A stretch of DNA of 64,000 nt from an uncultured delta proteobacterium (GTDB lineage: Bacteria > Desulfobacterota > Binatia > UBA9968): NCBI GenBank assembly GCA_963745035.1, contig CAVUVW010000011.1, positions 64,001 to 128,000 on the forward strand. The letters run 5' to 3'. Position numbers and translations under genes: made by a program. How positions within the stretch are numbered: position 1 is the stretch's first letter; every line of letters begins with the position of its first letter. Below, in pieces: positions 8,207 to 64,000 of this stretch. The notes under the pieces are model-generated. The model saw nothing but the letters and a program-made list of their open reading frames with translations. It ran no database searches and was not told the origin of the DNA.

Positions 8207-9244
8207 TCACTTGCGCGATTGATCGAAGCGAGCCCGCGCTCTTTGGTTTGTTGACGGCATGGCGGGGATCTCGCCGCGCAGGGCTCGCAGAATATTGTCC
8301 GCTGCACGCAGTTCGATTTGCCGGCGCACTTCATCCACCGCCGAGCCCAGGTGCGGTGTAAATAGCGTTTGACCGCGATTATCGAGAAGAGTTTGCGGAA
8401 TCGATTGGGGACAGTCTTGCCGTTGCAGGTCTTCCATCTCGAATACGTCCGCGGCGTAACCCGCGAGCTTGCCCGACTTCAGCGCGCGCGCCACCGCAGT
8501 TTCATCGACCACCGAGCCGCGGCCGACGTTCACGAGATAGCTGCTGGGTTTCATGACGGCGAGGGTGCGTCGTTGATCAAGTGCAATGTGCCATCCAAGA
8601 GCGGCGCCGCTAGAATCACGCAATCACTTTGTTTCAATAACTTGCTCGAGCGTGAGTCCAATCCAGCCCCTCGCGACTTCCTCGTTCGGTTCTAAACGAT
8701 GGCGATCGTGATACACGATCTTCACATCGAAACCGACGAGACGCTGCGCGATGGTCCGACCGACGGCGCCCATGCCGATGATGCCGACGACACGCCCGCT
8801 CAGTCCGGCGCCGTAAAGCTCCGGTCGCCAGCCGGTAAAATTTCCACTGTGCACGAAGCGATCGCCGTCGAGCACCCGGCGGGTGAGACCCAACAGCAGC
8901 GTAACCGCCAGCTCGGCGGTGGGAATCGTCAGGAGATCCGGGACGATGGTAAACCAGATGCCGCGCCGGCTCATGGCCTCGACGTCGAAGTTGTCGAAGC
9001 CTTTGAGAGCGGCGGCGACTATTTTCAAATTGGGGCAGTGGCGCAGGAATTCTTCATCGATCAGGTCCGGCATGAAGACCATGAGCGCATCGGCTTGCTG
9101 CGCTTTCTCGAGTAGTTCCTGGCGCGACCAGGTGGTGCGACGATCATTGACGATCACCGTGCAGCTTTGGCTTAAAAGCTCGACGACCTCGCGGTGAACC
9201 AGATGAGTGACGGTGACGCACGGTTTCACGGAAACCCCGTTCAT
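8207..9244 (-). CDS. ptxD: NAD-dependent phosphite dehydrogenase (frameshifts near 8560-8630, probably assembly errors)
   Basis: [45 protein letters not shown] and [10 protein letters not shown] match PtxD signatures; ATGA overlap with the ptxC stop. Confidence 0.88.
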
Positions 9245-10044
9245 TTGAACTGCCGGCGCAGATAACCGCTCAAGCCGTCGACCAAGGTGACCATGAGCAG
9301 CACTACAATTAGAATCGCCGAGAGGTCGCGATACTGCATGAGCCTGAGCGCCCCCATCAGCTCGAAGCCGATACCGCCGGCGCCGACCATACCCATAACC
9401 GTGGAGGCGCGGAAATTGTACTCCCAGCGGTAGATCGATACGTCGGCCATCTGCGGAATGACCTGCGGCAGGAAGCCGTGGAAGATCACCTGGAGCGGCG
9501 TATGGCCGGCGGCGCGCGACGCTTCCACGGGCGCGACGTGGGCGTGCTCGATCGCCTCGGCAAAGAATTTTCCCACCATGCCGACGGAGTGGAGACCGAG
9601 AGCCAGCACGCCAGGCAGTGCGCCAAAGCCGACGGCAGCGACGAAAACGATGCCCATGATCAATTCCGGGATCGAGCGCAGGCTGTTCAAAATGCCACGG
9701 GAGATTTGATAGACGAACGGATGCGGCGACGTGTTGACGGCCGCTAAGAACGCCAGCGGCAGAGAGAAGAGGACCGCGAGAGCGGTTCCCGCTACGCTCA
9801 TCATCAGCGTGTCCAAAACCGGCCACAGCCAGTTTTTCGCGTCGGTGAAATTGGGCGGCAACATTTCACCGACGAGACTCACGATGCTTGGAACGCCTTG
9901 CGCCAAGCGGGGACCGTCAAAAAGCTTGACGTGGTATAAAGCCGCTCCGACGATGACGAGAACCGCGCAGACGATCAGGCACGAGCGCTGCCACCGGCGC
10001 TGGTATTCGCTCAAGGTTGGGCCGTACGTGTTTTCTGTAGACAT
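9241..10044 (-). CDS. ptxC: Phosphite/phosphonate ABC transporter permease (PhnE family)
   Basis: RSIPELI, GKFFAEAIE and YRWEYNFRASTVMGMVGAGGIG motifs. Confidence 0.9.
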   Translation of the reverse strand: MSTENTYGPTLSEYQRRWQRSCLIVCAVLVIVGAALYHVKLFDGPRLAQGVPSIVSLVGEMLPPNFTDAKNWLWPVLDTLMMSVAGTALAVLFSLPLAFLAAVNTSPHPFVYQISRGILNSLRSIPELIMGIVFVAAVGFGALPGVLALGLHSVGMVGKFFAEAIEHAHVAPVEASRAAGHTPLQVIFHGFLPQVIPQMADVSIYRWEYNFRASTVMGMVGAGGIGFELMGALRLMQYRDLSAILIVVLLMVTLVDGLSGYLRRQFK

Positions 10045-23765: not shown

Positions 23766-25456
23766 CTAGGTAACGATCACGTCGATGATCGCCGGCTTGC
23801 CGCTCCGGTTGGCTTCGAGGCCGCGCTTCAGCGCATCCTGGAGCTTTTCCGGATCGGTCACTTGCTCACCGTAGCCGTCGACGGATTCGGCGACCTTCAC
23901 GAAGCTGGGCGCATTGATGTGGGTGCCGTGGTAAAGATCGATCTCGGCCGCGATCCCGTCCGGATACATCTTTTGGTGCATGCCCTGCATGGCGGCGTAT
24001 TTTTTGTTGTTGAAGATGACCGTCATAGTCGGCAGGTTGTAATCGCGCGCCGCGCCGAGGCTGCCGAGAGCCGGGTTGTAAAGGAACGCGCCGTCGCCGA
24101 TCAGGGTCACGACCTGCCGTTCCGGTTTCCCGAGCTTGATCCCCAGCGAAAGACCCAGCCCCTGTCCGAGACCGCCTTGGCGGGTGAACAGGCACTGCGG
24201 GTGGTTCCATACGAGGTGTTGGCGCAAGGTGGCGGTGTGGGTGGTGACTTCGTCGATGTAAATCGCATCTTTGGGCATCACGGCGTTGAGCGAGGCGCAC
24301 AGCCATACCGGATCAATCGGTGTCTTCTTGCGCGCAGCCGTCTGCGCCGCATTCCTTTTCTCGACCAGCGCATCGTGCGCCGCGGCGAGCTCCTTGCGTC
24401 TTGCCTCCACCGCGGCCTTATCGACTTTAGCGGCATTGGCTAGATCGCGCAGCGTCTGTGCCACGTTGCCTTCGAGATACATATCGGCCTGATGACTCTG
24501 GTAGACCATCGCCGAATTGTGCGGCGCCTCGTCCACCATGGCGACCACGGCCTTGGGCGGGCGGTTGCTTGGCGGATACCACGGGGCGCGCGCGCGGACG
24601 ACGATCGCGAGGTCCATGTCGTTCCAGAACGGTTTGATATCGGTGCCCTGATAAAGCGGATGATCCTTGGGGAAGTTGGCGAACAGGGCGCCGGGCTTCT
24701 CGACCAACGGCAGAGCGAGCTTCTCGCACAGCGCGACCAGCGCCTCGTAAGTCTCGACCTCCTGGCCGGCGCCCTCGGTGAGCACCACCGGGTGTTTCGC
24801 TTTGGAAAGCTGGGCGGCGAGCTTTTCGATGTCCTCCGGCGCAGTCAGGATGCGCGGTGCGGGCGGAACCGTGCGCGGATTAACTGCGGCGGTGTCCAGC
24901 CATCCATCAGCGTTTCCGTCGAAACGGAAAGATAAGTGGGTCCGGTCGGTTGCCGCTGCGCCAGCTCGCCGGCGCGGATGACGCTTTCATAGAGCGTGTG
25001 GACGCTGCCCGCGACAGAGGAGTACTTGACGATCGAGTCGACCAGGTTGGTCGTGCCGCTGACGATGCTCAAGTTGTTCATCCACTGGGCGCCCGGATCG
25101 AACTCCGGCTGCTCGCCGTAGGTCATCGACTCTCCGGAGATCACCACCATCGGGACTCCGGCGACAAAGGCGCCGTGCATGCCCATGGCGCCCTGCAACA
25201 GGCCGGCGCCCGCGTGCAACAACACGGCCTGCATTTTGCCGGTGGCCAGCGTGTAGCCCGCCGCGATGTCGACGGCGAGTGTTTCGTGCCACACGTCCAG
25301 CAGTTTGGGACCGCTCTTCTTCCGGTGGATCTGGTCGGCCATGGCTTCCCAGACAGGCGCCCATTCGGTGCCCGGCGAAGACAGGATGTATTCAACTCCG
25401 AGCTTGCGGAACGCTTCGACTAAGGCGCTGCCGCCGTCGAACTGGTTCTTTTTCAT
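23766..25456 (-). CDS. Thiamine diphosphate-binding enzyme (ALS / benzoylformate decarboxylase-like), frameshifted near 24800-24880
   Basis: SPGTE and HE in the N-terminal half; GDGAF...NN TPP motif in the C-terminal half. Confidence 0.88.
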
Positions 25457-54887: not shown

Positions 54888-55988
54888 ATGATGGCGGTTC
54901 GATTTCCCACCGTCGATGCCGATGGTCATCTCGAAGAGAATCACATCGACTGGAAGGAGCGCCTACCGGATATCTACAAGGACCGAGCACCGGAGCGCCG
55001 GCAGAGCGGCAATGGTCAACTGCGGACGATTATCGAAGGCAAGCCTTGGCCGCGTCCCGACGGCTTGGGCATCGGCGTGGGCGGCCCGTACAGTCGTCCT
55101 CATCCGCGCCGCCCGGGGATGACCGATCCCAAAGCGCGGCTCGTCGATATGGACAGCGAGGGCATTGACGTGGCCGTGCTGTTCGGCGCCGGACTGGCGG
55201 GAACCCTGCCGGCGTTGGAAGACGGCGGTCTTGCCGCCGCGCTCGCGACCGCGCGCAATAGTTGGCTCGCGGAATACTGCGCGGCGGATCCAGAACGCAT
55301 CAAAGGCACGGCGGCGCTGGCGCAGCAGGATATTTCGGCGAGCGTCAAAGAATTGGAGCGCACCGTAAACGAGCTCGGCTTCGTCGGCGCTTCGCTCTTT
55401 CCCAACGTCAAAGGCCGCCATCTCGGCGATGCCTACTATTTTCCGCTCTACGAAGCCGCCGAACGCCTCGACGTGCCGATCTGCGTGCACATGTTCCTGG
55501 GACGTTACGGCTCGGACGCCGTCGGCACCGACCGGGTCGAAAAATTTTTTTACTCGCATCTGTTCGGCCATCCGTTCGAGCAGATGATCGCGCTGTCGGT
55601 CATCATCGGCGAAGGCGTGCTCGACCGTTTCCCCAAGCTGCGCTTTGTTTTTCTCGAGTCGGGCTGCGGCTGGCTACCCTACTGGTTTGAAAGAATGGAC
55701 GAGCACTACGAGGTGCTCGGCGTGCAGCTACCCGCGCTCAAGATCGAGCCGAGCAGGCTCTTGGAGCGCGGCCAGCTCTACTTCTCCTGCGAAGCGGACG
55801 AAAAGGAGCTCGCGCACGTCGTCGACGTGATCGGCGCCGATTGGATTGTCTTCGCGTCGGACTACAGCCATTTCGACAGTCGCTGGCCCGGCGCCTCCGA
55901 GCCGATCGCAAATCACGCAACGCTCAGCGACGCGGTGAAGCGGAAGATTCTCAACGACAATGCGCGCCGGCTCTATCCCCTGGACTAA
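54888..55988 (+). CDS. Amidohydrolase family 2
   Basis: DADGH, DMDSEGID, FPKLRFVFLE and SDYSH motifs. Confidence 0.88.
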   Translation: MMAVRFPTVDADGHLEENHIDWKERLPDIYKDRAPERRQSGNGQLRTIIEGKPWPRPDGLGIGVGGPYSRPHPRRPGMTDPKARLVDMDSEGIDVAVLFGAGLAGTLPALEDGGLAAALATARNSWLAEYCAADPERIKGTAALAQQDISASVKELERTVNELGFVGASLFPNVKGRHLGDAYYFPLYEAAERLDVPICVHMFLGRYGSDAVGTDRVEKFFYSHLFGHPFEQMIALSVIIGEGVLDRFPKLRFVFLESGCGWLPYWFERMDEHYEVLGVQLPALKIEPSRLLERGQLYFSCEADEKELAHVVDVIGADWIVFASDYSHFDSRWPGASEPIANHATLSDAVKRKILNDNARRLYPLD

Positions 55989-55992
55989 CGCA

Positions 55993-56926
55993 ATGAAAAA
56001 AACAGAATCACTCCTAGCGATCCTCTTCGTGCTGTTTACCCTCTCGCCGGCTCATGGCGAGGACATCAAGATCGGCCTGCCGTCGGTGACCATCACCGCC
56101 ATGCCGTTTTTCGTCGCCAAGGAACACGGCTTCTTCAAGCAGGAAGGCCTCAACGGGGAAATGGTGGTGATGCCGGCGGCGCTGAACATTCGCGTCCTCC
56201 TGGCCGGCGATATCCAGTATGCGGCGACCATCGGTTCCGCCGTTGCCGCGGCGATTCGCGGCATCAACGTGCGCACGGTGATGCTCTTCGTCGATCGCCC
56301 GCTGCAGGATCTCGTTGGCGGAGCCGGCATCAAATCGATACCGGACCTCAGGGGAAAAGTCGTGGCGCTCTCGTCGCGCGGCGGTCTGCAGGACATCATC
56401 ATGCGGCGCATGCTCGCAAAGGCCAAGATCGATTCCACCCAGATCACCATGGTAACCATCGCTGGCCAGACCGCCCTGATCGCGGCCGTGAAAACCGGAC
56501 GGGTCGCCGCGGCGCTGCTCAATCCGCCTTATAATTTCCTCGCCTACCGCGAAGGGCTGAACAACTTGGGATTCTCCGGAGACTTCGTGCGCCTGCCGAG
56601 CACGGGCATCGCGACTCTTGGGTGAAACTCTCGAGCGCAATCCCGATCAAGTGCGGCGCCTGACACGCGCGATAGCGCGCGCCCGCGCTTTTGCCAGAGA
56701 CAACAAGGCCAAGGTGATGCCGACCCTCAAGCGCGCGCTGCGCATCGAAGACGAAGAGCTGCTATCGAAGATCTATGACCAGCACAAACTGGTCGAAACC
56801 GCCGACGGCCGCGTCGATGACGGCCTGATCGCCGACACCATCCGCGACGCGCGCCAGACCGACAAGATCGAGAAAGAAATTCCCGCCAATCAGGTCTTTG
56901 ATTTCTCGTATTTGCCGGCGCGCTGA
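55993..56926 (+). CDS. ABC-type substrate-binding protein, NMT1/THI5-like (frameshift near 56620)
   Basis: Signal peptide; GFFKQEGL and DLRGKVV motifs; C-terminus VFDFSYL in ORF 56618-56926. Confidence 0.82.
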
Positions 56927-57244: not shown

Positions 57245-58285
57245 CTACTTGAACTGTGGCATGACTTTTTCGGCGAAGAGCCGGATATTCTTAAGCGCCA
57301 TCTCCTGCGGCATGCCGCCGAAGTGAAACGTGCCGGAGATCGTGGTGAGCCCGTTCGGTTCGCTCCACTTGCGGATCGTGTCGGCCACCCGCTGCGGATC
57401 TCCTGCCAAGACAAACCCTTCCCTGATCTGCGTCTCGGCGGCGCGCTGGACGAGCAGTCCTATTTCTTTGCGATCGGTATCCGCCGCGGTGTGAACTTCG
57501 AGATAGTTGTCCAAATAGGGCGCGGCTTCTTCCACGGCTTTGTCCAAACTGCTCGACACGTAGATATGAAACTTGCCCAAAATATCCGTTTTGCCGGCAT
57601 CATGCCCGGCCTTGGCTAGATTCTCGCGGTAGATTTTTATGAACGCGGGCAAGGCTCCCGGATCGCGATAGAGGTACGGCAAGGTCATCAGATGAAAGCC
57701 GTTTTCTCCCGCCCAGCGAAACGAATCCTCGGTGCGCGCACAACCGACCCAGAAACGCGGATGGGGCCGCTGTACCGGCTTGGGATAGACCGGCACGTTC
57801 TCGTAATTGTAAAACTCGCCTTTGAAATTGACCGGCTTGTCCGACCATGCCTGCAGCATGACTTCGACGCCTTCGTACATGCGCCCGGTCGCTTCCTTTT
57901 GATCGACGCGAAACTTTTTGTACTCGTGCGCCTCGCTGCCCTTGCCGACGCCGAAATCCAATCGCCCGTTGGAAATCACATCGACCATCGCATAGGACTC
58001 GGCGATGTCGATGGGATTATGCAGCGGTAAAACATTGATAGCGACGCCGAGGCGAATTTTTTTGGTCGTCCGCGCGATCGCCGACATGAAAGTCGGCGGA
58101 TGCGGCAAATCGCCGCCGTAGTGCGCGAAATGATGCTCGGTGACCCAGATATGGTCGTAATCGAGCCGGTCCATTTCCTCCATCTGCCCGAACATCTTTT
58201 GATAGAACTCCGACACCGACCCGTCGAGGTCGGGAACGTAGGTTGGTAAATAGTGCGCGCCAAACTTCATCGTTTTCCTAGCCAT
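57245..58285 (-). CDS. LLM class flavin-dependent oxidoreductase
   Basis: WVTEHHF, GRLDFGVGKG, PKPVQRPHP and LFAEKVMP motifs. Confidence 0.9.
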   Translation of the reverse strand: MARKTMKFGAHYLPTYVPDLDGSVSEFYQKMFGQMEEMDRLDYDHIWVTEHHFAHYGGDLPHPPTFMSAIARTTKKIRLGVAINVLPLHNPIDIAESYAMVDVISNGRLDFGVGKGSEAHEYKKFRVDQKEATGRMYEGVEVMLQAWSDKPVNFKGEFYNYENVPVYPKPVQRPHPRFWVGCARTEDSFRWAGENGFHLMTLPYLYRDPGALPAFIKIYRENLAKAGHDAGKTDILGKFHIYVSSSLDKAVEEAAPYLDNYLEVHTAADTDRKEIGLLVQRAAETQIREGFVLAGDPQRVADTIRKWSEPNGLTTISGTFHFGGMPQEMALKNIRLFAEKVMPQFK

Positions 58286-58397
58286 CCGGAATCACAACCT
58301 CCAAAAATTTCATCCCACTAGATATAGGGTGGCGCTCCGCGGGAGTCAACGCTGGGCCGGCGACCGGTTCTACTTAATCTGCCCGAATCGCCAGGGT

Positions 58398-59738
58398 CTA
58401 ACCGCCCATTGCTACCGGCGGAGAAAATACCGTGGGTCCTGTGACCTCGGACTCGAGGGCACGAAGCGCGGTCTGAATAATCTCCCGGCGCAAACGCGCA
58501 TCGAGCTCTTTCGACAGGTTCGGGTCGCCGCACGGGTGTGGAATACTCACGCCTTTCACGATCCGGTTCGCGCGCACCTGTTGCGCCACTGCAAACATCG
58601 CGCTCACGAGCGCCACCGGCAGGCCGGCCTTTTCAAGTTCCTTGCTGATCACAGCGCCGCTGCGACTGCAGGTTCCTCACGTGGCGACGAAAAGAACTCC
58701 TTCCACATTGTCTTTCTTCAAGTCCGCGGCGATTTCCTGACCCATGCGCCGCATGACGGCGGGCGAGCCCTGATTCCCCGGAATAACGTAGTAGGCGGGG
58801 TAGAGCTTCCCGGCGCCGATGGCGCCTTCCGTTTCTAGCGCCCGCAGAGCGTCGAGCGGCACACCGTAGTGCGGATTCTGATTCATGTAGGCAACGTTGT
58901 AGCCGCCGTGCACCGCTTCCCACTTCCCCGGCTCGAGTTCTTTGAGCTCGGCGATGTTGTATTTGCGCCAGTACGTGTTGCGGTACGTCTTGAACTTGTC
59001 CGGGTTGCCGTACGGCACGACGCCGCTGGTCGTCACCACGGCAAGATTGCGACTTTTCGCATGGTCGAGCGGCGGGGCCGGCGCGGCATCGTCCCAAACT
59101 TCCAGCGGCAGCTCGCTCGCGAACGGTTCACCGTGGATTTTCCGGAGCAACATCTCGACGGCGCGCGTCGCGCCGCGGGACTCGGCTTTCTCAATGCGCC
59201 GAATGCCGCGGCCAATGTAGCCTTCTTGTGCTGCGGAACCGATCTCCTCTCCCTGGGCAAGGCGAATCGTGAGGTGAGCCAAGCGGGTCATGGCTTCGCT
59301 CATGCCCGCAGTGGTTTCCGCCGTCGGCAAGCAGTACATCCGCGCATTGGCGAACTCGCGATAAGCGTCCACGCCGGGATTTTCGATGTGCATCGCGGTC
59401 ACGCACGGTATCGCTAGTTCGTTGGCAATTGCATTGCCCGCCTCGACGCAAATCACACCGTAGCGTCCGGAATTGAAAGCGGGCCCGGCAACAACAACTT
59501 GCGGCTCAGCGGCCCGCACGGCATTCAAGATGGCCGTGATCGCCTCATCCTTGTGCTCGTGGAAGTAATTGTCGCCGACATAGATCGTGCGCACGACCTC
59601 CGCCTGTCCGCCGAGTTTCGCCTCCAAAGCCCGCGCCGCGCCGGCGCTGCCCTCGATAATGCCGACGGGCATACCGGCTTTTTCCTCGCCGCCGAGGCCG
59701 GCAAAAAATTGATTGACGACGTGAACGATGTTGATCAT
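58398..59738 (-). CDS. grdB: Glycine/sarcosine/betaine reductase selenoprotein B-like (446 aa, Sec at TGA 58677-58679)
   Basis: NQFFAGLGGEEKA, AGPAFNSGRYG and VHGGY; reading through the TGA gives VAT-U-GTCSRSGAVISKELE...PHPCGDP in one frame; AAGGAG RBS. Confidence 0.9.
58649..58665 (-). promoter_or_regulatory. Putative bacterial SECIS hairpin
   Basis: mRNA UCGCAGC-GGC-GCUGUGA (7-bp stem including one G-U) starting 11 nt after the UGA. Confidence 0.65.
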
Positions 59739-59756
59739 GAGTCTAACTCCTTGAGA

Positions 59757-59842
59757 GTTCAAAACGTTCAAGCCGTTCAATCGCTTCGCTCTGTTCAACC
59801 GGTGGGGGATCGAACGGTTTGAACAATCTGAACGTTTTGAAC
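59757..59842. repeat. Palindromic element of opposed 9-bp GTTCAA / TTGAAC units
   Basis: Perfect terminal inverted repeat GTTCAAAACGTTCA / TGAACGTTTTGAAC. Confidence 0.8.
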
Positions 59843-59844
59843 GG

Positions 59845-61171
59845 CTACGAAATTAATGCTCCGTCGCATCTAAAATTTCCGCCGCCCCAAATATCTGCCC
59901 CGCCGATCATCACGTCGCGCGCTTCCAGCGCTAGTGCGCCGAGCGCAGGCACGGGAGCGGCGCCGGGAAAGGGAAAGATCTTGATCTGTTCGTAGGGCCC
60001 GATCACTCGGTCCATGGCCGGCAACTCGACGGTGCGATCGAGCGCTCCTGTGCTAACGATCGCATCAGCTTCTGGAAGATAGAACAACACCGGACTGTCC
60101 TTCCCTTCCTTGCCGCCGTTCTCGTACGTAACGAGCGTCGTCTTGATCCCCGCTTGCTCGCAGGCGCGCACGGTCAACATCACATCGACAAAGGCGTTGC
60201 CGCCGCCGATCCATGTGACCAGCGCGCCCTCCGCGCCCATCGCCTTGGCCAGGCGCGCCGCATTCTGAGCGCCGACTTCCTTGCCGTGATTCGTTTCAAA
60301 GCGGATGCGCTGCAAGATGACTCCGCCGAAGTTCACGCTATTGCCGTGCGCCGCGTACAATTCCAGCGCCAGAGGATGGTTTTGCCAATCCCATGTCGTC
60401 GGGTAATAGCCGCGGCCCGAGCGCGTCGTATCGACGGTGACCGCGCCGTCAAGAAGCTCGTTCGGATGGATGAACGTAGACAGCGAATTCCGCAGCGATA
60501 AGCCATAGTACCCGACACCCGAGTGCACGTGCTGGGGGTCGGTAATGCATCCTTGAATCAGCATGACGTTGGGCAGGTCGGGATGCTTGTCCGTCAAATC
60601 ATAAATGGAAATTTTCGCGGGCGGCAATTCCGCGGTGACTTGCGCAAGACGCTGAGCAACTTTGAGCTCGGCGGACTGAATCGCGCCATGCGCATCGAGC
60701 TCGCCGAGGCCGGCAGCGATGCGAAAGCTTACGACCAGATGCACATGCGCGCTGAACCGTGAAATCTCCGCGCCGGGGCCGGACATGTCGAGGATCGCGC
60801 TTCGTTGCACCGTCGTGCCAGCCCGGATCGTGCCGTCATAATCGGCGGCTGCAATGACGGTCATGCCCGAGAGACGGTGCGTCCGCCCTTCGCCCACGGT
60901 CGCAACCTCGCCCAGAACACCGGGAAAAACCTGGCCGCTGCCGGAAACTTTGTATCTCGGCTCGACGATGTCCCTGATTCCGGTGATGCGCGTCTTCTCT
61001 CCCGGCGTTGCCACGGCAAGCGTTCACGTCGCTGATCCGCGCATCCTGCCGAAACCAGCGCGATCAACGCCGCTTCATCGACCTCGAAGCACTTCGCTCG
61101 TCGTACTTGAACCGATGCCCCAGCCGAATCTGTTTTACCGGAAATTCTGCGAGTTCGAGTCTCATCATCAT
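59845..61171 (-). CDS. Glycine/sarcosine/betaine reductase component B alpha/beta subunit-like (GrdE family; several frameshifts at 61010-61100)
   Basis: MRLELAEFPV, PGEKTRI...DIVEPRYK, GEGRTHRLSG, LDMSGPGA, HPNELLDGAV and ADAIVSTG motifs. Confidence 0.83.
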
Positions 61172-61179
61172 TCGCGGGA

Positions 61180-61330
61180 GTTCAAAACGTTCAATACGTT
61201 CAAACCGTTCAAGCCCTCACCCCGGATCACGTCCGGGGCAGGCTCTCGTTCCTCCCCCGCGACGCGGGGGAGGATGCAAGGAGGGGGTTTGAACGGAGCG
61301 TAGCGGTTGAACGGTTGGAACGTTTTGAAC
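61180..61330. repeat. Nested palindromic element: 9-bp GTTCAA / TTGAAC arms around CCCTC-type REP hairpins
   Basis: Terminal inverted repeat GTTCAAAACGTTC / GAACGTTTTGAAC; inner ccccggatcacgtccgggg and cctcccccgcgacgcgggggagg hairpins. Confidence 0.8.
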
Positions 61331-61337
61331 GCTTATA

Positions 61338-62411
61338 TTACGGCGCCCCCATGATTTTCCGAAAGTCCTGGATATAAGTTTGCAGATTTGTCCCCAGCTT
61401 GGGGCTCACGACAAAGTCCGGCTTGATCTGAAATTCTTTGAACTTGCTGCGCGCGCCTTTCATGGCGCTGCCTTTGCCCAGATTCGTCGCCAGAAAAGAC
61501 TGCGCCTCTTCGGAAAGCACCCATTCGGCGAACAGCAAAGCGGCATGCGGGTGCGGCGCGTTCTTCGCCACAAACAGCCCTTCGGGTTTGACGATCGCCG
61601 GAGCGAGGACTTTGAAGCCGAGCGGCGCGCCTTTTTCGCGGATGGCCGCCGAGGTCTCGCCGTTGATCGCGATGCCGATAGGATATTCGCCCGAAGTCAC
61701 GACTTGAGTCGTCAGCGTTCCGCCGCGCCGGTAACTTATGTCCTGCTTGGCGAGCCTGCTCAGATAAGCGACCGCTTTCTCTCGTCCCCAGGCGGCCTCC
61801 ATGGCCGCGAGAATATAACCCGCCTCCGGATCGAACAGCATCTTCCCCTTCCACGTGGGCTGAAGCAAATCGTCGTAACTTTTCGGTGCTTGCTCCGCCT
61901 TGACGGCATTGGCGTTGTAAATCAGCGCCGTGGTCAAATAGTACATGCTGTGCCAGGAGCCGGCCGGATCGTAGGTGCCGTCGAAAAAGCGGTTCGCTCC
62001 GGGAATCGCGTAAGGTTGCACAAGGTTGGCGTTGAGCAATTGATAGCCGTAGCTCAGATCGACCTGCACGATATCGAATGCATGCCTGCCGGCGCGCGCT
62101 TCGGTCAACGTCCGGCTGAGAATGCCGTCGCGCGGCGAGAAATAATGATGCAGAGCGATGGAACGATAGCGCTGATTGAAGACGCGCGCGAGCGGCAGGA
62201 ACTCGTCGATCGGCAAAGTGCCGTAATAAACCATTTCTCCTTCGGCTTGAGCGCCTTTGACGAGATAATTGATCCGCTCTTGTGGCTTGAGTGATTTGAT
62301 CTTATCTGCGACTTCGCCGATGGTCGCGGCGCCCGCCGGCAACGCCGACAGGACGCAACAACCGATGAGCAACATAAACCAGCTTGATCGAATTTTTCGA
62401 GCCCGAGACAT
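61338..62411 (-). CDS. Extracellular solute-binding protein (Fe/spermidine-type)
   Basis: Signal peptide; GAQAEG, EARAG, PKSYDDLL and APHPHAALLFAEWVLSEEAQ motifs. Confidence 0.86.
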   Translation of the reverse strand: MSRARKIRSSWFMLLIGCCVLSALPAGAATIGEVADKIKSLKPQERINYLVKGAQAEGEMVYYGTLPIDEFLPLARVFNQRYRSIALHHYFSPRDGILSRTLTEARAGRHAFDIVQVDLSYGYQLLNANLVQPYAIPGANRFFDGTYDPAGSWHSMYYLTTALIYNANAVKAEQAPKSYDDLLQPTWKGKMLFDPEAGYILAAMEAAWGREKAVAYLSRLAKQDISYRRGGTLTTQVVTSGEYPIGIAINGETSAAIREKGAPLGFKVLAPAIVKPEGLFVAKNAPHPHAALLFAEWVLSEEAQSFLATNLGKGSAMKGARSKFKEFQIKPDFVVSPKLGTNLQTYIQDFRKIMGAP

Positions 62412-62515
62412 GAAGCGATTCCTCTTTCCAGTGAGTTGCCAGATTTCCGTTTACAAAACATCCAAGCGAGCGTCAACTCGCAGGATTACGCAGCATGCGC
62501 GACGGCGGCCGCGCG

Positions 62516-63148
62516 TTACGAAGACACTGTCCGAGGTCCGATCGGTCCCTGATAAACCATATCGACGTCCATCTTTTGATAAGCGGCGACAAAACCGTTC
62601 TTGTATTCGTGGCCGCAGTAGTGCGCCGGCTTGAGTTTCTCCCACACAAGATAGCCGTTGGCGTCGACGCAGCCCTCGTCGACCGACGCCGCAACCACTT
62701 TCCCGACCACCATGACCCGGTGCAACCATTGCCTGGTCCATTCCACTTTGCACTCGAAATGGCTTTTGCATTCGGCGATGCGCGGCGGTTTGGCGACCCT
62801 TGACGGCAGCGCCGTCAGCCCCGCTTTTTCCAATTCGTTGACGCCCGGCGGAAACTCTAATCCGCACACCCGGACCTTTTCCAAAATTTCTTTCTCGAAC
62901 GGCGGTACGTTGACGACAAACTCGCCGGTCGACATGACATTGCTGCATGTGTCTTTTGTCGCACCAACGGTAAACGCGATAAACACCGGATCATGGCACA
63001 CGCGCACGCAGGTGCCGAAGGAGGCGGCATTGATTCGGCCTTGGCCGTCCACAGTGGTGATCATCACCAAACAAGCGCTCGGCGCAAACAGCCGATCCCA
63101 GTGTTCGCCCGGCACGTCGATCTTTCTAGCGAAGCTCGATTCGTTCAT
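62516..63148 (-). CDS. Flavin reductase-like FMN-binding protein
   Basis: ITTVD...INAASF, KDT..N....EFVVN, NELEKAGLT and PPRIAEC..HFEC motifs. Confidence 0.86.
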   Translation of the reverse strand: MNESSFARKIDVPGEHWDRLFAPSACLVMITTVDGQGRINAASFGTCVRVCHDPVFIAFTVGATKDTCSNVMSTGEFVVNVPPFEKEILEKVRVCGLEFPPGVNELEKAGLTALPSRVAKPPRIAECKSHFECKVEWTRQWLHRVMVVGKVVAASVDEGCVDANGYLVWEKLKPAHYCGHEYKNGFVAAYQKMDVDMVYQGPIGPRTVSS

Positions 63149-63340
63149 TTCACCGCCTCCTTTAAATTCGATCAGGAACCGAAGTCTATTCGAGTGGCAT
63201 CGGCATCGTCAATGCGTCGCCCTGGAAGACGGCGTAATTTTCCGCGCAAACGTTCAATAAACCGCGTCTCGTTCATCATTTCAGATAATATTTGCAGCCC
63301 AAACGCCACGCTCGTAAAATATGCCTCTAACGAGCCTTGT

Positions 63341-64000
63341 ATGAAGCGCTGGCAAATTATGGTCATCGCGGCCGTCGTCGTTCTGGCGATGGCGGTGATC
63401 GTCGGGTATCGAATCGGCGTGCAAATGCTCCACGACAAAGTCGTTGCCGCGCTCGGGAGCGGCAGCCGCTTGACGGAGCTGAAGGTCAATTGGTTCACGA
63501 TCGAATTGCTCGGGCTCAGCATCGACGCTCCCAAAGGATGGCCGGCGGCGCGCACATTCGAAGCGGAGCGGGTGATCATAACTCCCGATCTTCGCACCCT
63601 GTTTACTAGAAAAAACCGGATCTTTTCCATCGTCGTCGAAAAGCCTTACATGTCGATCCTGCGCAATCCAGCCAAACTGGTGTTGGTTCCCAGTTTGACG
63701 GAACGGCAGGAACCGGCGCAATCGACAGAATCAAGCGCTCATGAGATAGAAATCTCAAGGATCGAGCTCAAGAACGGCAGCTTGGATTTCTATGACGCCA
63801 CGGTGAGCCGGCCACCTTATAAGACCAGAATTGAAGAAATCGATGCGCTGATCAAAGACGTCGCGACCCCCGCGGCCGACAAAACCCACTTCGAGCTGAC
63901 TGGAATTGTAAAAGGAGTGCGGCGCGATGGTCGAGGCAAGGTGCGCGGCTGGGTCGGGCCGGCGGCCAGGGACTCTTCGTCGCAGATCACCCTCGAAGCG
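63341..64000 (+). CDS. DUF748/AsmA-like membrane-anchored protein, 5' part (runs off the window)
   Basis: Open frame from ATG 63341 (MKRWQIMVIAAVVVLAMAVIVGYRIG...) to the window end; absent from the ORF track; family call is by pattern only. Confidence 0.65.
   Translation, partial: MKRWQIMVIAAVVVLAMAVIVGYRIGVQMLHDKVVAALGSGSRLTELKVNWFTIELLGLSIDAPKGWPAARTFEAERVIITPDLRTLFTRKNRIFSIVVEKPYMSILRNPAKLVLVPSLTERQEPAQSTESSAHEIEISRIELKNGSLDFYDATVSRPPYKTRIEEIDALIKDVATPAADKTHFELTGIVKGVRRDGRGKVRGWVGPAARDSSSQITLEA

Follow-up and report, generated by a model that had tools for sequence, protein, structure and literature searches.

Gene content of the locus and decoding of its selenocysteine codon

The stretch of DNA analysed here (the window; C11:64001-128000, 64 kb) belongs to a 7.43-Mb genome of 28 contigs, 92.6% complete and with 5.8% contamination, whose nearest public relatives are labelled Candidatus Binatia or "uncultured delta proteobacterium". 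Positions 57245-63148 of the window hold five open frames, all on the minus strand, among them a pair of genes resembling grdE and grdB, the two subunits of protein B of glycine reductase. A preliminary description of this DNA had named five co-oriented minus-strand genes (flavin reductase, solute-binding protein (SBP), GrdE-like, GrdB-like and luciferase-like oxidoreductase), and the coordinates and Pfam families agree with it. The run is bordered upstream by a divergent plus-strand DUF748 gene and downstream by a convergent NMT1-type binding-protein gene, and its features are as follows.

57245-58285, minus: luciferase-like (LLM class) flavin monooxygenase, 346 amino acids; PF00296 (Bac_luciferase), 198.5 bits
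58398-59738 (TGA read through), minus: GrdB-like selenoprotein, 446 amino acids with selenocysteine (Sec) at position 354; PF07355 (GRDB), 382.1 bits
58648-58666, minus: hairpin resembling a selenocysteine insertion sequence (SECIS), GUCGCAGC-GGC-GCUGUGAU; consensus fold and frozen synonymous sites
59845-61165, as assembled open only from the GTG at 61014, minus: GrdE-like subunit, about 436 amino acids if whole; PF09338 (Gly_reductase), 275.9 bits
61176-61337, no strand: dispersed intergenic repeat, tandem TTGAACGNN units in inverted arms and a GC-rich hairpin; read from the sequence
61338-62411, minus: secreted SBP, 357 amino acids; SBP_bac_8/6/1/11
62516-63148, minus: flavin-reductase-like split-barrel protein binding flavin mononucleotide (FMN), 210 amino acids; PF01613 (Flavin_Reduct), 77.1 bits

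The GrdB-like frame contains an in-frame TGA at 58677-58679, in the motif FVAT-U-GTCSRSG, and reading this codon as Sec (U) adds 92 residues to the protein. It belongs to the subfamily TIGR01918, matched at 444.7 bits (cut-off 65.45) over profile positions 2-430 of 431. Exactly one in-frame TGA was found, in the same column, in all 32 GrdB genes compared, which came from Binatia clades, paralogs and three clostridial references. The best 120 database homologs are 74-96% identical to the GrdB-like protein and 119 of them cover 79% of it; 112 are exactly 353 amino acids long, implying that gene callers cut the protein at the Sec codon.

In the consensus fold of 26 distinct sequences, the SECIS-like hairpin starts 13 nucleotides past the U of UGA. 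At codons +4 to +9, 25-26 of these 26 sequences share the same third base, and equally conserved flanking residues are free at the third codon base (e.g. 10 of 26 at Gly+1 and at Val-6). Since the fold of the single sequence was no better than shuffles (z -0.21), the evidence for the element comes from the 26-sequence comparison. The genome also carries a complete Sec machinery, with selA, selB, selD and the tRNA-Sec gene on contig C17. Judged from these sequence features, Sec read-through of the TGA is well supported, and the earlier proposal that the GrdB-like protein with its U-G-T-C is a real selenoenzyme is borne out by the conserved TGA, the hairpin and the presence of selA, selB, selD and tRNA-Sec. 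Sequence searches of the PDB with the GrdB-like and GrdE-like proteins returned nothing at E up to 0.01.

Two further observations concern Sec codons. The selD gene (C17:318816-319742) carries its own in-frame TGA, corresponding to a Sec-containing SelD, and lies directly behind selA and selB, with the tRNA-Sec gene 52 kb further. In relatives (G, genome; C, contig), GrdB paralogs with two in-frame TGA inside the match were seen (G145:C58, G187:C43, G081:C5, G097:C155, G137:C1:1982636 and 3670004, G159:C52, G191:C1:857166 and others), which may mark a second selenocysteine.

The PF09338 match of the GrdE-like frame covers only profile positions 51-388. Its true start is the ATG at 61165-61163 (MRLELAEFPVKQIRLG...), the N-terminus lying upstream in other frames: when compared with five orthologs, +2, +1 and +1 bases within about 70 nucleotides put the first 50 codons or so out of frame. 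Orthologs are full length, at about 435 amino acids. Logan contigs approximately 98% identical, one run from each of three studies (X1, X5 and X6), cover 60700-61247 with 9 substitutions and are each one base short at 61022, 61047, 61086, 61098/61099 and 61167; run X7 had no coverage of this 5' end. As the extra bases are missing from near-identical contigs, the breaks are either assembly errors or private to the strain, and in the population represented by these contigs the GrdE-like gene is intact. In the window genome, rpoB and rpoC are unbroken.

Apparent split genes occur elsewhere in the window as well, namely a 2-hydroxyacid dehydrogenase at 8207-9826 and an NMT1 binding protein at 55960-56926, each in two frames; these breaks look like frameshifts of the same kind as the one at the GrdE 5' end. 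At 23766-25456, the N and C halves of a thiamine diphosphate enzyme are encoded by separate open reading frames, which may be a natural split.

The dispersed repeat, made of tandem 9-nucleotide TTGAACGNN units in inverted arms and often accompanied by a GC-rich hairpin, occupies both 61176-61337 and 59739-59844, that is, before the GrdE-like and before the GrdB-like gene. A role as a grd-specific regulatory element was considered and rejected, as the triple TTGAACGNN unit forms 154 clusters across the 7.4-Mb genome. Contig depth over 61180-61347 rose 10- to 100-fold in four soil/rhizosphere metagenome runs (habitats being given here by the run labels only), which indicates a repeat common to many genomes, and translated remnants of it were found before GrdE in relatives. 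Promoter and terminator scans of the locus gave counts within the range of shuffles, and no sequencing run contained more than a third of the sampled words. A sixth gene, orf152 (63172-63630, minus), was also rejected, being likelier the antisense of the plus-strand DUF748 gene; its apparent homologs upstream of the SBP gene in relatives fit this reading.

Placement of the GrdE/GrdB-like pair among known reductases

Every model of an individual reductase subunit scored below its cut-off. The GrdB-like protein reached 400.6 bits with the GrdB equivalog TIGR01917 (cut-off 602.2), 429.2 bits with GrdF (NF040794, 800) and 395.5 bits with GrdH (NF040795, 775), and the GrdE-like protein 206.1 bits with GrdG (NF040793, 780) and 106.9 bits with FarE (NF053623, 675). 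Control proteins passed their own models, with 854 bits for GrdF and 881 bits for GrdG of Peptoclostridium acidaminophilum and 811.6 bits for GrdH of Acetoanaerobium noterae. For the latter organism, whose record is unannotated, the labels in grdX-trxB-trxA-grdE-grdA-grdB-grdC-grdD were assigned from open reading frame order, sizes and homology.

A maximum likelihood tree of GrdB (quick search, LG+G4, 111 rows, N-terminal 353 residues, midpoint root for drawing only) placed the GrdB-like protein in an orthologous clade of 11 rows (Shimodaira-Hasegawa-like approximate likelihood ratio test, SH-aLRT, 99), nested in a 26-row Binatia/"delta" clade (100), and A. noterae GrdB, P. acidaminophilum GrdF and A. 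noterae GrdH in a separate group of 9 rows (SH-aLRT 86). In a search of the whole library, which returned 1,472 proteins at E up to 0.001 with 150 representatives listed, near-canonical scores were obtained for only a handful of the 80 representatives of at least 330 amino acids that were scanned against NCBIfam. The canonical enzymes are accordingly minor branches within a broad radiation of uncharacterised proteins.

At the active site, all 26 members of the clade have U-G-T-C-S-R-S and the three references U-G-T-C-T-R-C, so that the GrdB-like protein has UxxCxxS in place of the canonical UxxCxxC. Its partner differs too: the GrdE-like protein has VDTTRSGRGYY where GrdE and GrdG read SGNC-VS/VA-xC, with Thr in the cleavage column (VDTTRSGRG versus SGNCVS-AC), and TVDTTRSGRGYY stands at this processing site in 59 of 59 GrdE-like orthologs. 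According to a passage of PMC9908766, the cysteine at the self-cleavage site of Clostridioides difficile GrdE becomes a pyruvoyl group (peptide 242-266). Both processing cysteines being replaced, neither a pyruvoyl group nor a Schiff base is expected in the GrdE-like subunit. Altogether, the pair is not a canonical glycine, sarcosine or betaine reductase: the separate clade and the scores below every equivalog cut-off place the GrdB-like protein outside GrdB, GrdF and GrdH, in support of the earlier interpretation. The representative library also holds fused GrdE-GrdB proteins of 774-798 amino acids ending at the Sec codon (P0150, P0169, P0205 and P0209), and the N-terminal half of P0169 is FarE-like (358.7 bits).

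Among characterised systems, the betaine reductase GrdH/GrdI of Peptoclostridium, Acetoanaerobium and Enterococcus shares the two-subunit protein B and Sec in a T-U-G-T-C context. The A. noterae GrdI-like protein also lacks the first (cleavage) cysteine, with SGSF where the window protein has VDTT, a resemblance in mechanism and not proof of membership, and the betaine protein B of A. noterae likewise lies away from grdA/grdC and beside an uptake gene, there a BCCT carrier and in the window an SBP. Lack of the cleavage cysteine in both GrdI and FarE is also described in a passage of PMC10838667. However, identity to GrdH is only 38%, the motif is UxxCxxC versus UxxCxxS and the two fall in separate tree clades; the uptake partner in the window is an SBP of the iron/thiamine/pyridoxal phosphate (PLP)/aminoethylphosphonate kind, not a betaine carrier, and GrdD was not detected in the host lineage.

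With the glycine and sarcosine protein B of Stickland Clostridia (GrdE/GrdB and GrdG/GrdF), the window pair shares the Pfam families, the Sec column and the pairing of subunits, and the GrdA and GrdC homologs of the window genome are 47% and 41% identical to those of A. noterae. Unlike these enzymes, the GrdE-like protein has no SGNC...C processing site, and the window has no grdX-trxB-trxA-grdE-grdA-grdB-grdC-grdD operon, GrdD and GrdX having no match in the genome. D-proline reductase is another point of comparison: the C-terminal half of the GrdB-like protein aligns with PrdB at 72.7 bits, far below the cut-off of 300, but PrdA is a pyruvoyl proprotein and the locus holds no prdC-like gene. 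PrdA/PrdB is a family member that works without protein A, according to a passage of PMC13188914. A further parallel is described in PMC10838667 for FarB/FarE of Synergistota, a GrdB/GrdE pair recruited to fluoroacetate in a small locus of its own with a transporter, in which FarE lacks the processing cysteines, the CxxC motif of FarB is altered and the pair is thought to feed the common GrdA system. In contrast to that locus, the window locus has no radical SAM gene or antiporter, and its host is a soil Binatia member, not a gut anaerobe.

Partners of the pair in the genome, the order and soil metagenomes

Searches within the 64 kb found no gene for GrdA, GrdC/GrdD or thioredoxin, as the preliminary description had stated. 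Genome-wide, there are four GrdB loci, five GrdE matches and one GrdA (C13:1654698-1655141, one TGA, 178-182 bits), which adjoins a GrdC of 556 bits (cut-off 450) in a two-gene unit, grdC-grdA (C13:1654698-1656582); TrxB homologs are encoded on C13 and, beyond the window, on C11. For GrdD, the component C alpha subunit that forms acetyl-phosphate, the best hidden Markov model match in this 92.6% complete genome was 24.9 bits and A. noterae GrdD gave no tblastn match; nor did A. noterae GrdX. The classical end of the pathway is therefore open. The GrdE/GrdB-like pair thus stands alone at its locus, as had been claimed, but not in its genome, which holds this grdA-grdC pair and three more GrdB/E loci. 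Two of the GrdB/E loci are broken, one at C15:300835-303622 (GrdB in three frames, GrdE with an internal TGA) and one at C27:167168-168500 (GrdB in two frames).

In the order of the window genome, GrdA was found in 44 and GrdB-like proteins (E up to 1e-60) in 46 of 61 genomes. Both were present in 43, GrdB only in three (G166, G172, G081), GrdA only in one (G153, 81% complete), and 14 had neither; as the genomes are related to one another, this co-occurrence is not a statistical test. Across a sample of 151 genomes of the class, full-length GRDB proteins were found in only 16, all but one in the window's order, the other 62 positives being short, weak partial matches.

Sister clades bring GrdB directly together with GrdA. 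Within the same family, GrdB proteins 70% (G105) and 65% (G178) identical to the window protein are encoded in the order GrdB-GrdE-GrdC-GrdA, with a second GrdE in G105, and in G186 GrdA lies 3 kb from a sister-clade GrdB. A C13-type paralog, whose motif U-G-T-S-T-R-S has no Cys, follows GrdC-GrdA in an operonic arrangement in G121 and G047, where a thioredoxin-domain (DUF255) protein of about 500 amino acids is encoded divergently beside grdC. One GrdA serving several dispersed protein B loci is the normal layout of the order, which matches the layout of many protein B and one protein A described for other bacteria in a passage of PMC10838667. The functional independence from the Grd system that had been proposed for the locus is not supported, in view of the Sec-containing grdA and the grdC on another contig, the co-occurrence in 43 genomes and the GrdB-GrdE-GrdC-GrdA order of the sister clade.

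Conservation of the neighbouring genes was assessed in 13 orthologous genome loci with 74-89% identity (L028-L035, L037, L041-L044) and in a metagenome scan with 176 confirmed stretches, of which the best 80 were kept, 71 with a GrdB at least 75% identical. GrdE precedes GrdB in 12 of 12 assessable genome loci and 54 of 55 assessable metagenome loci, and the SBP gene lies directly before GrdE in 9 of 11 and 32 of 34, respectively. A luciferase-like monooxygenase (LLM) at least 75% identical follows GrdB in 9 of the 13 genome loci, and the LLM of a further locus, L042, is 57% identical. Among the metagenome loci, an LLM no more than 2.5 kb behind GrdB was seen in 33 of 46 assessable, a count slightly favoured because any locus with an LLM seen is assessable. 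Where contigs run on, the LLM gene is followed, as in the window, by a convergent NMT1-amidohydrolase-orf343 block. As it always comes with this further syntenic block, its conservation may simply reflect shared ancestry. A flavin reductase gene was found somewhere in 4 of 13 genome loci and 4 of 71 metagenome loci, and within 300 nucleotides of the SBP gene in 1 of 23 assessable loci. In more distant GrdB clades, 56-70% identical, GrdB comes before GrdE, and neither an LLM nor a flavin reductase gene is a neighbour.

The firm unit is consequently SBP-GrdE-GrdB, with the LLM as a frequent and the flavin reductase as an occasional neighbour. Of the linkage to LLM, SBP and flavin reductase put forward earlier, the SBP part is strongly conserved, the LLM part is frequent and comes with its syntenic block, and the flavin reductase part is occasional; the case for the proposed coupling to a two-component flavin enzyme is weak, the reductase gene being so seldom beside the SBP gene or in the locus at all. 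One contig in this set, L037 (= L074, JBLMXG010000300.1 = G174:C300), that of the closest species-representative ortholog, has the public label Chloroflexota, whereas the genome collection assigns it to a genome of the genus to which the window belongs; an error in either the label or the binning is probable.

The SBP has an N-terminal signal sequence with an LIGC lipobox-like motif. Among solved structures it comes closest to a PLP-binding protein (48 bits) and to ferric-iron SBPs (range 38-48 bits), and it matches the PhnS2 and thiamine SBP models weakly, far below their cut-offs. The LLM is nearest to FMN-type enzymes of solved structure (142 bits with 7BIP), F420 enzymes following at about 62 bits, and no NCBIfam model reaches its cut-off with it. 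Nearest to the PF01613 protein are 1EJE, an archaeal FMN-binding protein (104.6 bits), a 2-nitrobenzoate nitroreductase and flavoredoxins. The PF00296 and PF01613 genes are three genes apart in the locus and neither product reaches an equivalog model. Only four PF01613 loci exist in the window genome, and a second one adjoins a 33% identical SBP paralog at the GrdE/B locus of C13; both points argue for some connection with the flavin-reductase-like protein.

Amidohydro_2 and NMT1 genes found close to GrdB/E loci were rejected as partners, since with 108 and 176 places genome-wide such neighbours would arise by chance. The genome as a whole shows a great expansion of orphan binding-protein and hydrolase families (tblastn: 176 NMT1-like, 89 SBP_bac_8-like, 108 Amidohydro_2-like and 41 LLM-like places), and the window itself, with only one ATP-binding cassette (ABC) ATPase, encodes binding proteins of the NMT1 type (at least six) and of the TctC type (at least three).

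Proposed function and significance

With moderate confidence, the SBP, GrdE-like and GrdB-like proteins are interpreted as a protein B module dedicated to one substrate, within a glycine-reductase-like system of the Binatia type. The sister clade and the C13-type paralog, both operonic with grdC-grdA, count in favour of a protein B, as do the co-occurrence of GrdA with GrdB and the layout of four GrdB and one GrdA. From the observed genes, Sec decoding signals, motif losses, synteny and co-occurrence we infer a scheme that extends from transport through each chemical step to the use of GrdA. The secreted SBP would capture an X-CH2-COO(-) compound, which a permease would import. Sec354 of the GrdB-like protein would then attack the alpha-carbon, expel X and become carboxymethylated, as in the family mechanism, with a GrdE-like subunit that, devoid of processing cysteines, would form no pyruvoyl group or Schiff base, like GrdI of betaine reductase and FarE of the fluoroacetate enzyme. 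The carboxymethyl group would pass to the single GrdA encoded on C13 and be worked up by the adjacent GrdC; with no GrdD detected, the final product may be acetyl-phosphate, acetate or a thioester. Since the GrdE-like subunit is unable to make a pyruvoyl group, a primary or secondary amine that must be activated as an imine (Schiff base) is improbable as X, as with betaine and fluoroacetate. The LLM and the flavin-reductase-like protein would be at most accessory, acting for instance on the leaving group or on a precursor, and not part of the core.

Several observations weigh against a module of this kind. The third cysteine of UxxCxxC, said in a passage of PMC13188914 to interact with GrdA, is a serine in all 26 clade members. 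GrdA and GrdC, both queried, were found in none of the 71 metagenome loci of the orthologous clade, and none turned up in the 13 orthologous genome loci, where neither was among the queries. Every positive genome has several GrdB genes, so that co-occurrence cannot assign GrdA to this paralog. No permease or ATPase gene lies beside the SBP gene. GrdD was found in 0 of 61 genomes of the order, leaving the textbook pathway incomplete; on this point the earlier suggestion that the enzyme is not coupled to acetyl-phosphate formation agrees with the data. Finally, the position of two of the four PF01613 genes beside GrdE/B and SBP loci hints at another electron donor.

Some of these observations feed an alternative in which the pair works in a self-contained manner, like D-proline reductase, without GrdA or GrdC: Cys357 of UxxC would resolve the Se-carboxymethyl or Se-alkyl intermediate, and an FMN protein with NAD(P)H would re-reduce the Se-S bond, with no acetyl-phosphate formed. 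The missing GrdA and GrdC in orthologous-clade loci and the lack of GrdD in 61 genomes would fit such a mode, as would the Cys at U+3, retained in 26 of 26 members when that at U+6 is lost, the two PF01613 genes within a few kb of GrdE/B and SBP loci, and the precedent of D-proline reductase acting without protein A (in the same passage of PMC13188914). We nevertheless consider it unlikely, as the flavin reductase gene is missing from most loci (1 of 23 beside the SBP gene, 4 of 71 anywhere), the motif of the C13-type paralog, which also has a PF01613 gene nearby, is devoid of Cys, close sister clades share an operon with grdC-grdA and the match to the PrdB model is weak (72.7 versus 300 bits).

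An improbable explanation as well is that all five genes form one catabolic operon for a single imported compound, in which the LLM and the flavin reductase act as a two-component monooxygenase that prepares or consumes the substrate or product of the GrdE/B pair. The genes share one strand, with gaps of 104-323 nucleotides as assembled, an LLM follows GrdB in most loci (33 of 46 metagenome, 9 of 13 genome) and it is closer to FMN-type than to F420-type solved enzymes. However, it travels with the NMT1-amidohydrolase-orf343 block, and kinship accounts for the synteny equally well; an LLM is absent from 13 assessable loci, an extra SBP gene stands between GrdB and LLM in several loci, and clades 56-70% identical have neither flavin neighbour. 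The genome moreover has 41 LLM-like places, and the promoter and terminator scans did no better than shuffles.

A broader proposal that we hold to be quite improbable is that of a GrdD-less Binatia family of Sec reductases, each paralog with its own periplasmic binding protein. The substrate of the window's clade, cleaved without pyruvoyl, would then be an imported carboxymethyl-X compound other than glycine, sarcosine or betaine, and the electrons would come from an FMN protein instead of thioredoxin/GrdA, making this a new, self-contained reductive C-N/C-X cleavage outside anaerobic Stickland fermentation. Decay of the locus in this genome, with the GrdE-like gene as a recent pseudogene and a non-functional pair, is very unlikely: extra bases break the first 50 codons or so and two other GrdB/E loci are broken (C15 in three frames, GrdB of C27 in two), but the remainder of the gene and its four neighbours are intact, contigs 98% identical from three studies are unbroken, other split genes of the window suggest scattered assembly errors, and the GrdB-like gene retains the TGA, the SECIS and a complete C-terminus.

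Returning to the protein B module, the interpretation offered in the preliminary description is retained for the selenoenzyme, its non-canonical placement and its linkage to the SBP, and is not supported as regards independence from the Grd system, the case for the flavin coupling being weak. To our knowledge, GrdB-type selenoenzymes are known almost only from anaerobic amino-acid fermenters, and their established substrates are glycine, sarcosine, betaine and D-proline, plus fluoroacetate. Binatia are a soil lineage with genomes rich in oxygenase genes. Literature searches on Binatia/Binatota with glycine, betaine or sarcosine reductase found no relevant paper, and searches on GrdB-type selenoproteins and grdC/grdD without the Binatia term found none on this lineage; a paper on an Olavius symbiont (PMC1976440) was discarded for comparison, as it lists no GrdA or GrdB. 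Systems of this general kind have precedents: protein B modules scattered over a genome and equipped with an uptake gene, partner subunits that carry no pyruvoyl group, and changes in the CxxC motif. New relative to the literature searched are the Binatia lineage, the conserved SBP partner, the UxxCxxS motif and the order-wide absence of GrdD.

Taken together, the clade is abundant in soil metagenomes, with 176 confirmed stretches in one scan, and the cutting of homologs at the Sec codon by gene callers means that the family is mis-annotated at scale. Since GrdD is missing throughout the lineage, one may ask by what route the carboxymethyl-selenoether is resolved, and the conserved SBP partner provides a direct experimental handle on the substrate. 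If this substrate is a common soil compound, the system would represent an unrecognised selenium-dependent route in soil carbon and nitrogen turnover.

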